Source of the DNA: a virus
Lineage: Duplodnaviria; Caudoviricetes
Strand: one strand, 5' to 3'
Length of the DNA: 36,023 bases
Virus record (IMG/VR): IMGVR_UViG_3300024308_000049
Location: 1 to 36,023 of that record
A program made the position numbers and the translations under genes. The notes below the pieces were generated by a model. The model did not search any database and was not told the DNA's origin. It worked only from the letters and a program-made list of their open reading frames with translations. Positions 17,033-32,876 of the stretch are shown one piece after another; the first letter of the stretch is position 1, and every line of letters begins with the position of its first letter.

Positions 17033-17068
17033 AACGGCTGCCGCCCCTGCCACGGTAGCGTCAGCCAG

Positions 17069-17096
17069 AAAAGACAAAGCCCCGCAAGGCGGGGCT
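17069..17096 (-). terminator. First late-leader terminator (tR'-like)
   Basis: AGCCCCGC-ctt-GCGGGGCT-TTGTCTTTT on the minus strand. Confidence 0.75.
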
Positions 17097-17176
17097 CTGA
17101 ATCCGAGTCGGGTCTCGGGTTGTGCGACACAGCACGTGGCGCTCTGTTGCTCGGTAGGCGTACCTATCGAATCGTG
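17069..17176 (-). ncRNA. Candidate ~105-nt late-leader small RNA (pR' to tR')
   Basis: Lies between a candidate promoter and a terminator; multi-hairpin; contains CCACGUGCUGUGUCG, complementary to motifs in the early transcripts. Ends are inferred. Confidence 0.5.
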
Positions 17177-21406: not shown

Positions 21407-21605
21407 GCCGCACCTCCATCAACCCCTGGCAGCTCACGCAAAAACGGCAACCCGGCACTGCTTGGCGCCGGGCTTCGGGAATGTCGTCACCACAGCTGTC
21501 GCACTCGGTCGCGCTCTCGCCCTGGTACACCACACGGTTATCGATGGCCTGCTGCAGGCGCGCCTGCTGGGCCGCTTCAGCCATTTCCAGTACGCGCTCA
21601 TCCAT
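21399..21605 (-). CDS. TraR/DksA C4 zinc-finger protein (PtrB-like)
   Basis: CDSCGDDIPEARRQAVPGCRFCVSCQ. Confidence 0.93.
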   Translation of the reverse strand: MDERVLEMAEAAQQARLQQAIDNRVVYQGESATECDSCGDDIPEARRQAVPGCRFCVSCQGLMEVRRG

Positions 21606-22107
21606 CGTGGCGCTCCTCCCCAGCCAGCATGGCCTGCTCGGCGCCGGCGATGATCGCCAGCACCTGGCGAATCACCTCATGCCCGTGGTGCCGCAGCGCC
21701 ACAACCTCATGCGCCTGCCAAACGTTGTCGGCCGCACCGTCGTGCAGGCTGCCCACGAACTCCCCCTCGCGCTGCAGCAAGTCACCCACCGCCTTCAAGG
21801 CATCGCGGGTCGCCTTCACCGGCACCGGCTTGAACCACACCGCCCCGGCCGGACGCATCAGCGCGTCCAGCAGGCGCGGGTCATTGGTCAGGCGGATGAT
21901 GTCTTCAAGCTCGTCCGGGTTTGGCCAGCGGCGTTCCTCGGTCGGGTTCAGCTTCTTCTGCAGGGTGTCGTAACCCGTTACCAGGTCGAGATGCATATCA
22001 GTGGCCAGGGCGCCAATGCCGCCCCGATGGTCACGCCCGGCGCGGTAAAGCGCGTGGCGCAGGGAGAGCACCGGGCCAGCGCCCGGCAGCAGATCTTGTC
22101 GGCTCAT
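21598..22107 (-). CDS. Phage CII-family regulatory protein
   Basis: YDTLQKKLNP HTH and D.RLLDAL motif; position downstream of cro. Confidence 0.75.
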   Translation of the reverse strand: MSRQDLLPGAGPVLSLRHALYRAGRDHRGGIGALATDMHLDLVTGYDTLQKKLNPTEERRWPNPDELEDIIRLTNDPRLLDALMRPAGAVWFKPVPVKATRDALKAVGDLLQREGEFVGSLHDGAADNVWQAHEVVALRHHGHEVIRQVLAIIAGAEQAMLAGEERHDG

Positions 22108-22117
22108 ACCTACCCCA

Positions 22118-22461
22118 AGCCGGCCCCAGGCGGGGCCGGCTGTTGTGTGCTGTGTCTGCCGAGCTGGGCAGTCAGAGTTGCCCCGCTCGACCCCTTCCGT
22201 GCCGAGGGTCAGAGGCCCCGGCGCGGTTACTACCTAAAACCGCCGTTTAACGACATAGCCAGGCAGCCAGGGTTTCCCCTACTATTCCGGCTACGGCGAC
22301 TCGATGTTTCCACGTGCTGTGTCGGCATCGAGCGTCGTGCGCCTGGCGAGGGGTCAGAGCCTCGCCAGGCACCGGTGCAAGGGGTCAGAGCCTTGCACCA
22401 CCCCGCCCACCTGTGTGTCAGAGCTCAGGTGGGCAACCCGCTGGCCCCTTCGGGGGCCAGC
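22118..22461 (-). ncRNA. Highly structured leader between cro and cII: hairpin array with five CUCUGAC loops and two GACACAGCAC boxes
   Basis: GTCAGAG (+ strand) at 22171, 22208, 22353, 22384 and 22417, each enclosed by a different inverted repeat; GTGCTGTGTC at 22147 and 22314; flanking hairpins at 22118-22141 and 22440-22461. Confidence 0.7.
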
Positions 22462-22523
22462 ACCTTTGAGGGCTTAGCGCCCTCTCTCTCTTTCTGCATC
22501 AACCTGCTTCTGGAGAGAAACCA

Positions 22524-22706
22524 ATGCCTGCTCAACCAGATTTTGCTGCAGCCCTTGCAGCGCTAGACCAAGCGCTGGCTGCATTGCCGCCAACAGCTGT
22601 TGGAGATCAAGAGCCGAAGTTTCGCCTGGACTACCTTCGCTCGATTGAGCAGCTACTGGCTGCCCAGATGCGGATTCACAAGCTTCAGGGGAAATACAAG
22701 CCGTAA
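22524..22706 (+). CDS. Small hypothetical protein, antisense to the PR operon
   Basis: 60 aa helical-looking ORF with GGAGA RBS; competes with the overlapping minus ORF 22474-22755. Confidence 0.45.
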   Translation: MPAQPDFAAALAALDQALAALPPTAVGDQEPKFRLDYLRSIEQLLAAQMRIHKLQGKYKP

Positions 22707-22751
22707 GCTCCAGCGTGATGCCGAAAGCAGTGAAACCTTGAGAAAGGCGGA

Positions 22752-23006
22752 TCATGCGGCCTCCGAGTGATTAAGCTCAGCCTCAGGCACGCCGAAATGC
22801 TGCAAGACCTCACAAAGCGAAACCTTCCCCTCACTTTCCCGCGCCAAGGCGCGCAGTAAGCGGAAGCGGGGTTCCTTGCGGGCGTACAAAACGTGCACCT
22901 TCATGTAACCGATAGTCACCCCGCAGCGGCTTGCATACGCCTCAAGCGGGTTACCACCCGGTTCACGCGGGCTATCAATGCTGCGGATGTAGTCGACGAG
23001 TTTCAT
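22752..23006 (-). CDS. cro: Cro-like HTH regulator
   Basis: Divergent from the repressor; ATG 23006 with GAGGTGA RBS; HTH YASRCGVTIGYMKVH. Confidence 0.75.
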   Translation of the reverse strand: MKLVDYIRSIDSPREPGGNPLEAYASRCGVTIGYMKVHVLYARKEPRFRLLRALARESEGKVSLCEVLQHFGVPEAELNHSEAA

Positions 23007-23030
23007 TCTGGTCACCTCGGTCGACATAAT

Positions 23031-23104: not shown

Positions 23105-23791
23105 ATGAGCAAATACCCCACGATCCCCGAAATACGACACGCCAACCTGCGCCGGGTAATGGACGAGCAGGACATTGGCCCGGCCGAACTCGCTCGCCGA
23201 CTTGGCAAATCACCGAGCCAAGTTGGGCAATTCGCCGGCCCAACTAGATTCAAGGGCATCGGCGATGACGCCGCGCGCGAACTCGAAGAGCTGCTTGGCC
23301 TGGCTCCCTACGACCTAGACAACCCAATCGTATTGCTCGGCCTGAGCACTGCCGAATCCGGTAGCTATCACACGGATGCGACCTTCCAGGCGTACACCAA
23401 GGGCAAGATACCTGTAGTAGGTGTCACAGCGGCAGGAGCTGCAATGGAAGTAATCGACCTCTACCAACCAGGCGTCGCCGAGGAATGGATAGACGCTCCG
23501 AAGAACTACACCCCTGGCTCCTTTATCCTGCGCCTGTCCGGCTTCTCTATGCAGCCTAAGTTTTGGGATGACGACCGCGTGATGATTGAGCCAGCCCTAG
23601 CCTGGTCAGTCGGCGACTTCGTATTCGCTAAGCGTCCAGCCCACGGCGACGGAACCTTCAAGAAGCTGGTAGAAGAAGATGGCCGCATGTTCCTGTTTGC
23701 GCTCAACCCAGACTTCAACCCCCGCTACATTGAAGTGACGCAGGATTGGCACATCGTAGGCAAAGCCACATTCCGGCTAGATAAACTCTAA
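23105..23791 (+). CDS. cI: CI-like repressor (HTH + S24 autopeptidase)
   Basis: N-terminal XRE HTH, Ala-Gly site (TAAG), catalytic Ser (GFSM) and Lys (TFKK). Confidence 0.95.
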   Translation: MSKYPTIPEIRHANLRRVMDEQDIGPAELARRLGKSPSQVGQFAGPTRFKGIGDDAARELEELLGLAPYDLDNPIVLLGLSTAESGSYHTDATFQAYTKGKIPVVGVTAAGAAMEVIDLYQPGVAEEWIDAPKNYTPGSFILRLSGFSMQPKFWDDDRVMIEPALAWSVGDFVFAKRPAHGDGTFKKLVEEDGRMFLFALNPDFNPRYIEVTQDWHIVGKATFRLDKL

Positions 23792-23839: not shown

Positions 23840-23875
23840 GATCGCGTACCCACACTCTGACCCCCGGAGTACGCG

Positions 23876-24067
23876 ATGCAACAGACACAGCACACATCCG
23901 CCCAGGTGCTCCTGCACCCGGCATGCACCACCAACCCGGACGCCGTCCGCGCTGTTCAGCAGGCCACTGGCCGCTTTGTAGTGCTCGTAGGCGGCCGCCC
24001 CACGCTGAAGCAGCCCCAAACCCTGCCCGCCTTCGAGGACTTCGGCCCTTGGGGAGGCGCAGCATGA
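23876..24067 (+). CDS. First early (PL) gene, hypothetical
   Basis: 63 aa, GGAG RBS within a hairpin, ATGA overlap with the next gene. Confidence 0.75.
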   Translation: MQQTQHTSAQVLLHPACTTNPDAVRAVQQATGRFVVLVGGRPTLKQPQTLPAFEDFGPWGGAA

Positions 24068-24342: not shown

Positions 24343-25181
24343 CCTACGCCCTTACCCCAATGTCCGCCCGCGCTATTGGCGTTTTGCTGAACGCCGGCGG
24401 CGGCTCCGACGCGATCCTGCTGCGCCGCCCCGAGAGCGAACTGCGCGCAGAACTGCACATTGAACGCTGCGGCCGCACCCTCACGGCCACCATCCTGCTC
24501 GGCCATCAGCGAAGCAGCCTGACACTGCAAGATGGTGACGGCGCCAACCAGCTGAACCTGGCCGAGCAGATCGAAGCCATCGCCAACGGCACAGCCGACA
24601 CCGCCGAAACCGGCGCGATCGGCACCCCGGCCACGCTAAAAACCTGCTGCAAGTGCGGCGGCGAGGCCATCGGCTACGACTACGCGATACCCGGCACCGA
24701 GTATCGCCACGGCGTGAAGTGCCGGCACGGCGACTGCCAGGCGGTCGAAGGCGCCACCACGGCGGACGAAGCCCATGCCGCCTGGAACCGCATCCAGGCC
24801 GAGAAGCTGGACGAGCCCACCGCCCATCCCGCCGACATGGTCAACCACCCTCCGCACTACAACGGCCACCCCTCTGGCCTGGAGTGCATCGAGGTGACCG
24901 AGCTGCTGCCGTTCAACCTCGGCAACGCTTTCAAGTACGTGTTCCGCCACCGTAGCAAGAACGGCCGCGAGGATCTGGAGAAGGCCCGCTGGTACCTCAA
25001 CCGCGAACTGGAGCGCTGCGAGCGCGGCGGCATCAGCATCGGCTACCTGCAGGCCACCCACGCCCTGGCCGGCCGCATCGCCGCGCACGAACCGTACCCG
25101 GTTGGCGCTGCGCTGGTGGCGATTGCCGCCGACGAGCCAGCCGAAGCACTGCACTGGATCGAGCACCTGCTCGCAGCCTGA
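24339..25181 (+). CDS. Mosaic protein: Lar-like zinc ribbon plus DUF3310 domain
   Basis: CCKCGGEA...C..GDC...AWN; DMVNHPPHY...FNLGNAFKYVFR...KNGREDLEKARWYL. Confidence 0.8.
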   Translation: MTYALTPMSARAIGVLLNAGGGSDAILLRRPESELRAELHIERCGRTLTATILLGHQRSSLTLQDGDGANQLNLAEQIEAIANGTADTAETGAIGTPATLKTCCKCGGEAIGYDYAIPGTEYRHGVKCRHGDCQAVEGATTADEAHAAWNRIQAEKLDEPTAHPADMVNHPPHYNGHPSGLECIEVTELLPFNLGNAFKYVFRHRSKNGREDLEKARWYLNRELERCERGGISIGYLQATHALAGRIAAHEPYPVGAALVAIAADEPAEALHWIEHLLAA

Positions 25182-25191
25182 GGGCCACGCC

Positions 25192-25476
25192 ATGAACCGC
25201 ACCGTGAAAGAGGCCGCCCAGGTACTGGGCATCGCCGAGAGCCAGCTGCGCGCCCACCTGCGCAGCATCAACGCCCTCAACCGCGACGGCACCCTGGCAG
25301 CGCGCCACATCGGCGGCGGCAAGCTGTTCATGGATCCGCGCGTGACCACTATCAAGCGCATCGGCATCCGCAAGCACTACGCCCCAGTGATGGTCACCGA
25401 AGCCGGCATTGACTGGCTGGCCAAGCAGCTCGGCATCGCCATCACCGAACTCCCGGCAAAGGACAGCGCCGCATGA
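25192..25476 (+). CDS. Antirepressor KilAC-like domain protein
   Basis: TVKEAAQVLGI...VMVTEAGIDWLAK; ATG 25192. Confidence 0.75.
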   Translation: MNRTVKEAAQVLGIAESQLRAHLRSINALNRDGTLAARHIGGGKLFMDPRVTTIKRIGIRKHYAPVMVTEAGIDWLAKQLGIAITELPAKDSAA

Positions 25477-26086: not shown

Positions 26087-26137
26087 CCCCCGCGCCCGGC
26101 GGCACCGGGCAATTCTCTGACAACCGAGGCACAGCAC

Positions 26138-26482: not shown

Positions 26483-26542
26483 TCACCCCGAACCGCAACA
26501 CAGCACCACCTAACCATCCTTACTCTGACAAGGACTACAACG

Positions 26543-27334: not shown

Positions 27335-27397
27335 GCCCCAACTCCCTGCGCCAGAGACTCTGACCCCTGGCGCAGGGCACCAACGGAGACACAGCAC

Positions 27398-29367: not shown

Positions 29368-29942
29368 GCTGGATTCTCACCCGCAGCGGCCGGAAGTTCG
29401 ACCTGGCCAACCCCACCGCCGACATGGTGGACCCGACCGATATCGCCCACAGCCTGAGCATGCAGTGCCGCTTCAACGGCCACACCCGCCACTTCTACAG
29501 CGTGGCCCAACACTGCTATCTGGTGTCCGACCTGGTGCCGGCCGAGTACCGCCTGGAAGCGCTGCTGCACGACGCCACCGAAGCCTACGTGGGCGATCTG
29601 GTGCGCCCGCTCAAGGAAGGCATGCGCGAGTTCTACGAGTGCCAGAACCTCGAATCACTCTACGACGCAGTAGAGCGCCGGGTCTGGATCGCCATCTGCG
29701 CACGATTCGACCTCGACCCCATCCTGCCGGACTGCGTGAAGCACGCCGATCTGGTAGCGCTGGCCACCGAAAAGCGCGACCTGATGCCCGAGCACCCGGA
29801 GCCCTGGCCATGCCTCGAAGGCATCGAACCCATCCCCCAGTTCATCGACCCCTGGCAGCCCAGCACGGCAGCCATCCACTACCACGGCCGCCTGCTCGAA
29901 CTGCTGGCCACCACTCACCGGCGGAGGGGCAATCATGGCTGA
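29364..29942 (+). CDS. HD-domain 5'-deoxynucleotidase-like protein (YfbR/YfdR family)
   Basis: RFNGH...YSVAQH...LLHDATEAYVGD...P.K. Confidence 0.9.
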   Translation: MSWILTRSGRKFDLANPTADMVDPTDIAHSLSMQCRFNGHTRHFYSVAQHCYLVSDLVPAEYRLEALLHDATEAYVGDLVRPLKEGMREFYECQNLESLYDAVERRVWIAICARFDLDPILPDCVKHADLVALATEKRDLMPEHPEPWPCLEGIEPIPQFIDPWQPSTAAIHYHGRLLELLATTHRRRGNHG

Positions 29943-31092
29943 CCGCACTGGGATTGAATGGACCGACGCGACATGGAACCCGATCAGGGGCTGCTCGCGT
30001 GTCTCGGAGGGCTGCCGGCACTGCTACGCAGAAGGCCAGGCAGCCCGCATCATCGCCATGGACCGCGGCCGAGGCGGCGCCGATGGCAAAGGCAGCTACG
30101 ACGGACTGCTTGCCAAGGGCGGCCAATGGAACGGGAAGGTGCGGAAGGTTCCTGAGCTGCTGGATCAGCCGCTGCGCTGGACCAAGCCGCGCCTGATCTT
30201 CGTCAACAGTATGTCGGACCTGTTCCACGAGGACGTGCCGTTCGAATTCGTCGCCGCCGTGTTCGGCGCCATGTCGCATGCACGCCAGCACACCTTCCAA
30301 GTGCTTACGAAGCGCCCCGCACGCATGCTCGAGTTCTTCACCTGGCTGCCTCAGCAGACGTCGCACAAGGAGGCCTGGGTCGCTACCGTGAACCAGGCAG
30401 AGTTCGTCTGCGGCGAAGATAGGGGGCGGCGTGGTTCCGAGAATGCAGCCGTCGAGGCCTGTGCCAGCGCTGCGTACTACAAGCGCGAGCAGATCGCGGC
30501 AGGTCGAAGCCTGCCACATAGCTTCTGGCCGAAATGGCCGCTGCAGAATGTCTGGATCGGCGTCAGCATCGAGGACCAGGCCGCCGCTGATGAGCGCATT
30601 CCGCTGTTGCTGGAGGTTCCGGCCGCCGTGCGGTGGCTGAGCATGGAGCCGCTGCTGGCGCCTGTCGACCTGTCGCGCTGGCTTGAGCTGGGAAGCCTGG
30701 ATACAGACCGGGGTTTGTCAAACCCAGGAATCGACTGGGTGGTAGTAGGCGGCGAATCAGGACCGAAGGCGAGGCCGATGCATCCCCAGTGGGCACGCGA
30801 CCTGCGCGACCAGTGCTCATTGGCCGGCGTACCCTTCCTGTTCAAGCAATGGGGCGAGTGGGCTCCAGGCGAATGCGTCACCCGGAATAGCGGCGTGGTT
30901 CCTACTGCGTCTCTGAGCTGGGAATGGCAATTCAGCACCGAAAACCTCGCACGCGAAGGCGGCCACGTCGACGACGAGCCCGACCTGTACCGCATCGGAA
31001 AGCGTAATGCCGGGCGCCTGCTCGACGGCGTACAGCACGACGGCTATCCGGTGTCCGACCTGGCTATTCGCACGGAGGCGACCCAGCCATGA
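29935..31092 (+). CDS. Phage Gp37/Gp68 (DUF5131) family protein
   Basis: IEWTDATWNP..GC..VS.GC.HCYA, FVNSMSDLFH, LTKRP, EPLL, GGESG and FKQWG motifs. Confidence 0.92.
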   Translation: MADRTGIEWTDATWNPIRGCSRVSEGCRHCYAEGQAARIIAMDRGRGGADGKGSYDGLLAKGGQWNGKVRKVPELLDQPLRWTKPRLIFVNSMSDLFHEDVPFEFVAAVFGAMSHARQHTFQVLTKRPARMLEFFTWLPQQTSHKEAWVATVNQAEFVCGEDRGRRGSENAAVEACASAAYYKREQIAAGRSLPHSFWPKWPLQNVWIGVSIEDQAAADERIPLLLEVPAAVRWLSMEPLLAPVDLSRWLELGSLDTDRGLSNPGIDWVVVGGESGPKARPMHPQWARDLRDQCSLAGVPFLFKQWGEWAPGECVTRNSGVVPTASLSWEWQFSTENLAREGGHVDDEPDLYRIGKRNAGRLLDGVQHDGYPVSDLAIRTEATQP

Positions 31093-32876
31093 CCGCCACC
31101 ACCTACCGCATCCACCCACAACCCAGCTTCAACTTCGGCGGCTTGGTGATCGACAACTTCGCCGGCGGCGGCGGCGCATCCACCGGCATTGAAATGGCCC
31201 TGGGCCGGCCGGTGGATATCGCCATCAACCACGACCCCGAAGCGATCGCCATGCACGAGATCAACCACCCGCACACCAAGCACTACTGCGAGAGCGTGTG
31301 GGAGGTCGACCCGCGCGAGATCACTGGCGGGCGACCCGTCGACCTCTGCTGGTTCAGCCCGGATTGCAAGCACTTCAGCAAGGCCAAGGGCGGCAAGCCG
31401 GTGAAGAAAGAGATTCGCGGCCTGGCCTGGGTGGCCATCCGCTACGCCGCCACCGTGCGCCCGCGCGTCATCATGCTGGAGAACGTCGAAGAGTTCGTCA
31501 CCTGGGGCCCACTGGCCGAAGGCCGCCCATGCCCTAAGAACAAGGGCCGTACCTTCAAAAGCTTCGTCAACGCCCTGCGCCGCCACGGCTACCAGGTCGA
31601 GTGGCGCGAGCTGCGCGCCAACCAGTTCGGCGCCGCCACCATCCGCAAGCGCCTGTTCCTGATCGCCCGTTGCGACGGCCAGCCCATCGTCTGGCCAAGC
31701 CCGACGCACCTGGCAGCCGCCAGTGCCGAGGTCAAGGCCAAGCAGGCCAAGCCGCAGCGCCTGGCCGCCGATATCATCGACTGGTCGCTGCCCTGCCCGT
31801 CGATTTTCACCCGCAAAAAGCCCCTGGCCGAGGCCACCCTGCGCCGCATCGCCCAGGGCATTCAGCGCTATGTGATCGATGCGGCAGAGCCCTTTCTGGT
31901 CAAGGTCAACCATGGCTATGACTATTTCCGTGGCCAACCCCTGGACGAACCGCTGCAGACCATCACCAGCAAGCTGGGCACCGGCCTGGTAGTGCCGACC
32001 CTGGCCCCCTTCATCACCGAACACGCCAACGCCAGCACCCAGCGCAACATGCCAGTGGAAGCCCCACTGCGCACCATCTGCGCCCAGGTCAAGGGCGGCC
32101 ACTTCGCCGTGGTTGCCCCCACCTTGGTGCAGCTCGGCTATGGCGAGCGCCCAGGCCAGGCGCCACGCGCGCCCGGGCTGGACAAGCCACTGGGTACCGT
32201 AGTGGCCGGCGGCGGCAAGCATGGCCTGGTGGCGGCTTTCCTCGCCAAGCACTACGGCGGCAACTACACAGGCCCAGGCGCCTCACTGGACGAGCCGGCA
32301 CCAACCGTAACGACGGTGGACCATAACGCCCTGGTGCTCGCCCACATCCAGCGCGACTTCGGCGCAAGCGTTGGCCATGCTGCTGACGAACCACTGGGCA
32401 CCGTGACCGCCGGCGGCGGCGGAAAATCCGCACTGGTCGCCAGCAGCTTGATCAAGCTACGCGGCACCAGCCGCGACGGCCAGCCCGCGACCGAGCCACT
32501 GCACACCGTCACCGCATCTGGAAACCACCTCGGCGAAGTGCGCGCCTTCCTGCTCAAGTACTACGAGCACGGTACCGGCCAGTCCCTGACCGAGCCCCTG
32601 CACACCATCACCACCAAGCACCGCCTGGGCTTGGTGATGGTCAAGGGCGAGCCCTACCAGATCGTCGATATCGGCATGCGCATGCTGGAGCCCCACGAGC
32701 TCTACGCCGCCCAGGGCTTCCCGGCCAACTACATCCACGACCGCACCATAAGCGGCAAGCGCCTGAGTAAAGCCAGCCAGGTACGCATGTGCGGCAACAG
32801 CGTCTGCCCACCCGTCGCCGCCGCCCTGGTGCGCGCCAACCTCGTGGAGCAGCAGCAGAGCGAGGTGGCGGCATGA
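31089..32876 (+). CDS. Orphan DNA cytosine-C5 methyltransferase with large repetitive insert
   Basis: FAGGGG, SPDC, ENV, R.RLF and GNSV motifs; repeated PLxT(V/I)T units. Confidence 0.92.
   Translation: MTATTYRIHPQPSFNFGGLVIDNFAGGGGASTGIEMALGRPVDIAINHDPEAIAMHEINHPHTKHYCESVWEVDPREITGGRPVDLCWFSPDCKHFSKAKGGKPVKKEIRGLAWVAIRYAATVRPRVIMLENVEEFVTWGPLAEGRPCPKNKGRTFKSFVNALRRHGYQVEWRELRANQFGAATIRKRLFLIARCDGQPIVWPSPTHLAAASAEVKAKQAKPQRLAADIIDWSLPCPSIFTRKKPLAEATLRRIAQGIQRYVIDAAEPFLVKVNHGYDYFRGQPLDEPLQTITSKLGTGLVVPTLAPFITEHANASTQRNMPVEAPLRTICAQVKGGHFAVVAPTLVQLGYGERPGQAPRAPGLDKPLGTVVAGGGKHGLVAAFLAKHYGGNYTGPGASLDEPAPTVTTVDHNALVLAHIQRDFGASVGHAADEPLGTVTAGGGGKSALVASSLIKLRGTSRDGQPATEPLHTVTASGNHLGEVRAFLLKYYEHGTGQSLTEPLHTITTKHRLGLVMVKGEPYQIVDIGMRMLEPHELYAAQGFPANYIHDRTISGKRLSKASQVRMCGNSVCPPVAAALVRANLVEQQQSEVAA

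Follow-up and report, generated by a model that had tools for sequence, protein, structure and literature searches.

A conserved hairpin array between the cro- and cII-like genes of Pseudomonas temperate phages and a predicted multi-target antisense RNA

INTRODUCTION

The C4 RNA of phages P1 and P7 carries the seeds a and b, is processed from a precursor, and figures in the heteroimmunity of these two phages; the CI RNA of P4 triggers premature termination. In lambda, the nut sites combine a hairpin, whose boxB loop is purine rich, with a single-stranded box; one lies between cro and cII and another where the other early operon begins, and the sites exist as phage-specific alleles. As far as the accessible parts of the published reports go, C4 represses the icd-ant operon (PMC8198154), and in phage 186 the CII protein binds an inverted repeat with half-sites at −38 and −58 (20 bp apart) of pE, a promoter that is convergent to pR and drives cI (PMC6593788). 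Excerpts of other accounts place the OOP RNA over the 3′ end of lambda cII (PMC7067206), trace lambda aQ to a CII-dependent promoter (PMC12197685), and describe StxS as a small RNA derived from pR′-tR′ of Stx phages that targets stx1AB and rpoS (PMC7547250).

Here we analyzed a window of 36,023 nt, the whole 36-kb record of a temperate phage in which profile searches identified an integrase, TraR, a primase-helicase, a holin, and a terminase. Its named relatives include prophages of Ectopseudomonas and Pseudomonas as well as cultured phages of P. aeruginosa and Stutzerimonas. A preliminary description of this sequence had reported, in the gap between the cro- and cII-like genes, a series of hairpins with unrelated stems and one fixed loop, and had proposed that they form a landing pad in the cII leader. 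We compared this array across related loci and with the systems above.

RESULTS

The cII-like gene of the window (21598..22107, − strand) matched Pfam Phage_CP76 (PF06892, E = 4e-14) and PHROG 101; PDB matches to its profile were exclusively chains named "Regulatory protein CII" and were weak (E about 0.08). The cro-like gene (22752..23027, − strand), for which Pfam and PHROG returned no family match, was named by position and has annotated equivalents in two relatives (L018 and L019). A cI-like repressor gene with a Pfam Peptidase_S24 domain follows on the + strand (23105..23791). Relatives were assembled as 262 sequences, comprising 261 loci and the window, from which we retained 183 unique leaders that extend 330 nt or more upstream of cII. 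At one locus (L014), an integrase-like coding sequence replaces the leader and abuts the cII ribosome site, which suggests an insertion.

The array between cro and cII is real and conserved. As first described, five inverted repeats (22161-22188, 22197-22226, 22341-22370, 22374-22399, and 22405-22434) enclose the loop GTCAGAG on the + strand (at 22171, 22208, 22353, 22384, and 22417), the third and fourth have perfect stems of 11 and 9 bp, and a further CTCGATG/CATCGAG hairpin lies at 22300-22332. The − strand of positions 22110-22470 folded at −199 kcal/mol (z = −6.75), a value that none of 100 shuffled sequences equaled. Within 260 nt one 7-mer occurs five times, whereas in 30 locally shuffled windows the highest count of any 7-mer was 4. 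The count of GTCAGAG over the whole window is weak evidence by itself: there are 9 matches, a number that 4 of 100 shuffles also attained (mean, 4.8). The stems do differ from one another, but the hairpins at 22341 and 22374 have in common a 14-nt core around the loop, so "unrelated" was too strong a word; two relatives (L006 and L007) lack one of this pair (22374..22399). The proposal that selection acts on RNA structure was upheld. Across 15 relatives, 15 of the 58 base pairs changed on both sides, 96.8% of alignment cells remained paired, and the loops stayed fixed while the stems accumulated compensatory changes.

The array also appears to be new to Rfam, as had been suspected: the window and seven related loci gave no match at gathering score. 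At E values of up to 10, the window gave 10 weak matches, none of them to the C4, c4-2, or IsrK family. Weak matches to radC (E = 0.96), isrJ, and isrK fell below threshold and were dropped. A blastn search with the cro-cII gap of the window matched no cultured phage; the element itself is carried by the cultured P. aeruginosa phages Turba, Lodos, Presto, Meadow, and LPPA56, and we estimate that about 290 IMG/VR stretches match one pattern of it.

The middle of the array (22227-22292) is weakly structured and contains a σ70-type promoter pattern on the + strand, at a position of the pE/pRE type: a −35-like TAGCCA (22256-22261), an 18-nt spacer, and a −10-like TACTAT (22280-22285). Because the pattern was derived from the same loci in which it was counted, the strand contrast and the column profile count as evidence and the rate does not. 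Of the 183 leaders, 180 had the pattern on the antisense strand and 1 had it on the other strand, with about 24 expected from shuffles; 176 had it when a downstream seed was also required. In these leaders, the hexamers are conserved, the sequence of the spacer is free, and its length is 17 to 18 nt. The −35 is a poor σ70 match, and a simple consensus scan gave no call for either the promoter or the putative terminator of the RNA predicted below. Just 5′ of the −35 lies an inverted repeat (22230..22255), a candidate CII site with half-site centers near −41 and −56 (spacing, about 15 to 16 bp). It is near-perfect in most relatives and degenerate in the lineage of the window, whose CII has a short insertion. 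In most relatives the repeat overlaps the cII ribosome site and could double as an RNA hairpin that presents the Shine-Dalgarno (SD) sequence.

Based on its position, the upstream inverted repeat resembling that of 186, and the weak PDB matches to CII, we predict that the + strand promoter is a pE-type establishment promoter activated by CII. A promoter that is fully explained as an establishment promoter for cI is, alone, no proof of a discrete small RNA. The conserved pattern does divide the array, which fails to support the earlier picture of a single landing pad of five loops in the leftward transcript. Relatives argue against a five-loop leader as well: the cII-side hairpins are missing in 155 of 176, and only 21, the lineage of the window among them, have the inserted cII-side stretch.

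Downstream of this promoter, the + strand is predicted to encode a small RNA of ~175 nt (22293..22470, both ends being predictions) that is antisense to the cro-cII transcript. Folding of the + strand 3′ of the −10 gave five hairpins in 178 nt at −116.8 kcal/mol (z = −8.3). The predicted 5′ hairpin (22293..22338) contains GUGCUGUG (22314-22321), hereafter seed B′, of which only the first 4 to 5 nt are predicted to be unpaired. Three hairpins with a GUCAGAG loop (seed A′), fully exposed in the predicted fold, follow at 22341..22370 (11-bp stem), 22374..22399 (9-bp stem, the one absent in L006 and L007), and 22405..22434; the first and third are supported by covariation in addition to the fold. 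The last element (22440..22467) is a C(UUCG)G hairpin with a short U-rich tail, probably a weak terminator or 3′ end, for which fold, covariation, and the tails of relatives speak. Its UUCG loop is found in most of the lineage of the window. In folds begun at +6, 104 of 156 unique RNAs had a 5′ helix that started 7 nt downstream of the −10.

To assign strands to the hairpins, we used isolated wobble pairs and tails. In the gap hairpins, G·U fell on the antisense strand in 29 distinct contexts versus 9 (P = 0.002, the contexts not being independent), whereas the cII-side hairpins favored the sense strand (6 versus 1) and the seed-B hairpin had no bias (6 versus 5); the positive control of this test failed, because target hairpins of the opposite operon showed no strand bias (16 G·U versus 18 A·C). 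At least four U residues in the 12 nt after the last hairpin were present in 94 of 137 antisense tails versus 3 sense-side tails, the U tail being short and partly the complement of the cro stop codon. Taken together, the wobbles and the U tails favor reading the cro-side hairpins on the + strand and the cII-side hairpins on the − strand.

RNA contigs and gene content touch the same question. A P. aeruginosa-type relative was present as contigs in 14 RNA runs. In one RNA library, a contig of depth 27.5 ends at position 9920 of the relative L173, about 20 nt from the predicted start, and the cII contigs are at depth 3 to 4; these contigs carry neither strand nor transcript ends, and they fit the antisense RNA model. 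Three sets of raw reads contained none from the L173 stretch. An antisense open reading frame (ORF) with an SD sequence occurred in 9 of 154 cro-cII gaps. Six of the nine belong to two unrelated families, both encoded on the antisense strand 3′ of the element, and the remaining three look like chance. The first family includes a 60-aa ORF of the window (22524..22706, + strand), which recurs in L017 and L094, has a diverged homologue in L180, and matched nothing in Pfam or PHROG; the second is found in L173 and L175. A 93-aa ORF (22474-22755, − strand) was set aside because it overlaps this 60-aa ORF, which has a homologue. Inserted 3′ of the predicted RNA, these passenger ORFs are candidate accessory genes expressed in lysogeny. 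We conclude that the three cro-side hairpins likely belong to an undescribed small RNA transcribed from the + strand.

The preliminary description had treated the array as an element of the cII leader. Its motif instead proved to be part of a phage-wide two-part tag at the starts of early genes. Elsewhere in the window the motif matches four times (23855, 26115, 26523, and 27358), always as CUCUGAC on the mRNA strand of the rightward early operon and always paired with a second box, box B (CACAGCAC); the cII leader and the sixth hairpin have this box too. The tag of the first operon gene (23843..23893, + strand) has CUCUGAC in a loop at 23855 and box B within the first codons at 23885. Before the YfdP-like gene (26115..26137, + strand), CUCUGAC is followed by a box B that abuts the AUG; before the DUF2303/YfdQ gene (26498..26535, + strand), box B comes first and is followed by a CUCUGAC-loop hairpin with the SD sequence in its 3′ arm; and before a gene of 265 aa (27343..27397, + strand), a CUCUGAC-loop hairpin is followed by box B between SD and AUG. 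In the cII leader (− strand), folding predicted a 10-bp hairpin directly 5′ of the SD-like sequence (22118..22141), a largely unpaired box B, GACACAGCAC (22147..22156), 5′ of that hairpin, and the two cII-proximal CUCUGAC-loop hairpins (22161..22188 and 22197..22226). These two hairpins and GACACAGCAC are likely targets of the predicted RNA.

Matches of at least 7 nt to both motifs were found at 5 of the 39 gene starts of the window (one of them mis-set), namely those of cII and the four operon genes only. According to the ORF lists, the four tagged operon genes are the first gene plus each of the three preceded by a gap of >50 nt; the operon's other genes mostly overlap the stop codon of their neighbor, with the antirepressor-like ORF as a likely exception. 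In relatives, each motif had a density of about 50 per 100 kb in the mRNA sense of the operon and of about 1 per 100 kb on the other strand. The first gene (23876-24067, + strand; 63 aa) belongs to PHROG 13491, of unknown function, and is conserved at 54 to 86 aa in at least two sequence types that have the tagged 5′ end in common. There, box B is coding yet constrained at the nucleotide level: it is exact in 105 of 139 unique genes, the synonymous Gln codon CAA appears in 2 of 134 box codons versus 98 of 302 control codons, and the preceding rare A-ending codon is kept in 135 of 139. Duplex energies for seed B left the targets inseparable from the other starts, only exact-match length separating them (39 starts, one mis-set), and the polarity of variants at target sites revealed no clear wobble bias.

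Several further observations concern individual loci or genes. In L256, box B is CACAACAC in the gap as well as in the first gene, the one instance in which this box changed in concert. The gap of L019 (phage PG1) holds a diverged version of the element, with CUUACC-type loops and a CACAGCAC box near the end of cro, in which the promoter-plus-seed pattern was unmatched. In the rightward early operon of the window, a weak ANT/KilAC antirepressor-like ORF (25102-25476, + strand) lies downstream of a tagged entry site, and DUF5131 and C-5 DNA methylase genes (29935-32876, + strand) lie 3′ of tagged entry sites.

The loop varies between loci in concert with its counterparts. Gap alleles were CUCUCAC, CUCUGAC, CUCUUAC, CUCUAC-, and CUCUAU-. 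Removal of duplicates left 156 rows, of which 116 had a target called and 40 had none, and in all 116 rows with both called, the gap allele was the commonest target allele. Targets in CUCUCAC loci were CUCUCAC in 151 cases versus CUCUGAC in 1, and in CUCUGAC loci they were CUCUGAC in 42 cases versus CUCUCAC in none. Two of the 183 leaders contain both main alleles. The allele label changed about 15 times on a quick tree of CII, and for CUCUGA at least seven changes are forced by well-supported branches; this tree is other than the element's own tree, and linkage may contribute to the concordance. Complementary two-part sites and allele concordance agree, at the level of sequence, with the analogy to C4 and CI antisense targets that had been raised earlier. 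Concordance is equally expected if a protein reads the loops and therefore cannot tell RNA from protein.

A late leader may be a second source of seed B′. This pR′-tR′-like leader (17065..17175, − strand) follows a Q-like gene (Atlas features, 0.93) and has GUGCUGUG at 17128-17135. Among the loci long enough, 105 of 113 have GTGCTGTG 3.3 to 7.5 kb downstream of cII, nearly all in the late leader, between the Q-like gene and the holin and before a strong terminator. The GUGCUGUG of the late leader is the exact complement of the early-gene box and is mostly predicted to be paired; a complement of the loop is missing. UUCAGAG in the late leader was considered as such a complement and dropped: it is part of the terminator, persists in L016, where the loop is CUCUCAC, and is missing from other loci. 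Near the predicted start, the late leader also has a conserved CACGAT element, which we take to resemble the pause element of lambda pR′.

DISCUSSION

In our judgment, the best reading of these data, and a fairly probable one, is that a CII-linked, C4-like antisense RNA with multiple targets damps the translation of early genes. The + strand RNA would be made from the pE-type promoter when CII is active. Its GUCAGAG loops would kiss the CUCUGAC loops of the targets (7 to 9 bp), after which GUGCUGUG would pair with box B (8 to 10 bp), whether this lies in the SD-AUG spacer, within the first codons, or at a standby site. The targets would be the tags at the starts of cII and the four genes of the opposite operon, whose translation would be blocked. 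Since the tags mark the first gene and genes preceded by a gap, and most of the remaining genes overlap their upstream neighbor, one RNA would damp whole translationally coupled blocks, in this model during the establishment of lysogeny. Read-through past the RNA would serve the passenger ORF and cI. In the lineage of the window, the cII leader has two extra hairpins, which as targets would subject CII to negative feedback. Having several loops may increase avidity and may let the allele switch via mixed states.

The strongest competitor is a protein. The CUCUGAC hairpins and CACAGCAC boxes could be sense-strand sites for a phage or host RNA-binding protein, acting in nut-like antitermination or as a translational repressor; the gap array would then be a multivalent site or sponge, and the promoter merely pE for cI. 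The positions echo nutR in the cro-cII gap and nutL at the start of the other early operon of lambda, concerted allele switches would suit a cognate protein too, the wobble control on target hairpins had no strand bias, and a 186-like pE accounts for the + strand promoter independently. We nevertheless consider this reading unlikely. Features of the gap hairpins (the antisense-strand G·U bias, the UUCG loop, and the U tails) speak for a + strand RNA, and the tags sit at internal ribosome sites rather than once per operon. The first operon gene is not Arg-rich, has no family assignment that names a function, and has sequence types that are shared between alleles; in a nonexhaustive comparison of 11 allele-discordant pairs, no allele-tracking protein stood out. 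Finally, the late leader, a second short RNA, also conserves the exact complement of box B.

A second alternative keeps the RNA and its pairing with the tags and changes the outcome to premature termination, cleavage by RNase III or RNase E, or activation of some genes through opening of an SD hairpin. The tagged hairpins at 23855 and 26523 have the SD sequence in their 3′ arms, from which invasion could release it, and the two boxes stand in the opposite order at YfdQ. Against this, box B fills the SD-AUG spacer at two targets and covers the first codons at one, where pairing should occlude ribosomes; we think such outcomes quite improbable. A purely DNA-level role (as operators or cruciforms), or an origin as relics of local duplication, with no RNA function in either case, would suit the 14-nt core common to two hairpins and the copy number that varies among relatives, and is very hard to reconcile with compensatory stem changes around fixed loops, a strict mRNA-strand bias in both divergent early operons, and suppressed synonymous change in box B.

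If damping by a multi-target RNA is correct, the cro-cII gap in a common group of temperate phages of Pseudomonas adds a layer to the lysis-lysogeny switch, in the form of a trans-acting RNA that it encodes. The promoter position that drives cI in 186, according to the available part of that report (PMC6593788), would here also emit a multi-target silencer. Such a layer could explain superinfection patterns that are independent of the repressor. Natural allele pairs amount to ready-made specificity swaps, and the occurrence of the element in cultured P. aeruginosa phages opens the idea to direct testing. A bolder version, which we put forward tentatively and regard as doubtful, is that this widespread phage family links its CII-activated promoter with an antisense RNA of several loops, by which all independent ribosome-entry sites of the early operon are silenced; that the loop alleles (CUCUGAC, CUCUCAC, CUCUUAC, CUCUAC, and others) constitute RNA-level immunity groups that switch independently of the repressor; and that the short RNA of the late leader supplies the invariant GUGCUGUG seed.

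How does this locus compare with known systems? Like the lambda nut sites, it has a hairpin and a single-stranded box at the same two places, in phage-specific alleles. In contrast to nut, the loops are pyrimidine-rich CUCUGAC loops of 7 to 8 nt in several copies, with four gene-start tags in one operon, and no N-like first gene was found, the first gene of 63 aa not being Arg-rich. CsrB and RsmZ differ in displaying GGA where this array has CUCUGAC/GUCAGAG loops, and no Rfam match connected them. The lambda OOP and aQ RNAs and P22 sar are, like the predicted RNA, short phage antisense RNAs on the lysis-lysogeny switch; each of them is described with one target, whereas the RNA predicted here would act in trans on several leaders by means of short seeds and, unlike OOP, lies 5′ of cII. 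StxS offers a precedent for a late-leader by-product that serves as a regulatory RNA, to which the GUGCUGUG-bearing leader would be analogous, with the difference that the conserved seed here appears to match the phage's own early tags.

The putative promoter has its closest counterparts in 186 pE and lambda pRE, with which it shares convergence on a lytic promoter and location at the start of a CII-family gene; an inverted repeat 5′ of the −35, degenerate in the window, is a candidate counterpart of the CII site of 186 pE. By sequence pattern, 180 of 183 leaders have a putative convergent promoter at the cII start pointing to cI. Unlike those of 186 pE, the half-sites are at about −41/−56, and the transcript would start with a conserved multi-hairpin RNA; the accessible parts of two reports on 186 mention no such RNA (PMC6593788, PMC7708051). 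Nor does the available portion of a 2025 review of phage small RNAs (PMC12197685). The supplements of Weinberg 2010 (PMC2864571), searched for motifs, contained no matching family among the matches listed, and the RNA is undescribed in the literature searched (including the accessible parts of PMC5737381 and PMC2330248), in which subscription journals are poorly represented.

P1/P7 C4 (RF01695), P4 CI, and N15 CA share with the predicted RNA a small phage transcript, two short seeds directed at repeated two-part sites, and a putative repression of early functions. As in C4 and CI, two seeds are complementary to repeated, covarying two-part targets. The Rfam covariance models for C4, c4-2, and IsrK gave no match, and the seeds here are located outside the target operon: they lie on the other strand of the cro-cII gap, 3′ of a convergent promoter pattern of their own. 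In contrast to the C4 fold, the predicted RNA is a string of hairpins with one seed repeated, and its candidate targets, as far as 5 kb away, are divided between the two divergent early operons. Among the systems compared, the predicted RNA would thus work most like P1 C4, from which its Rfam result and gene position set it apart.
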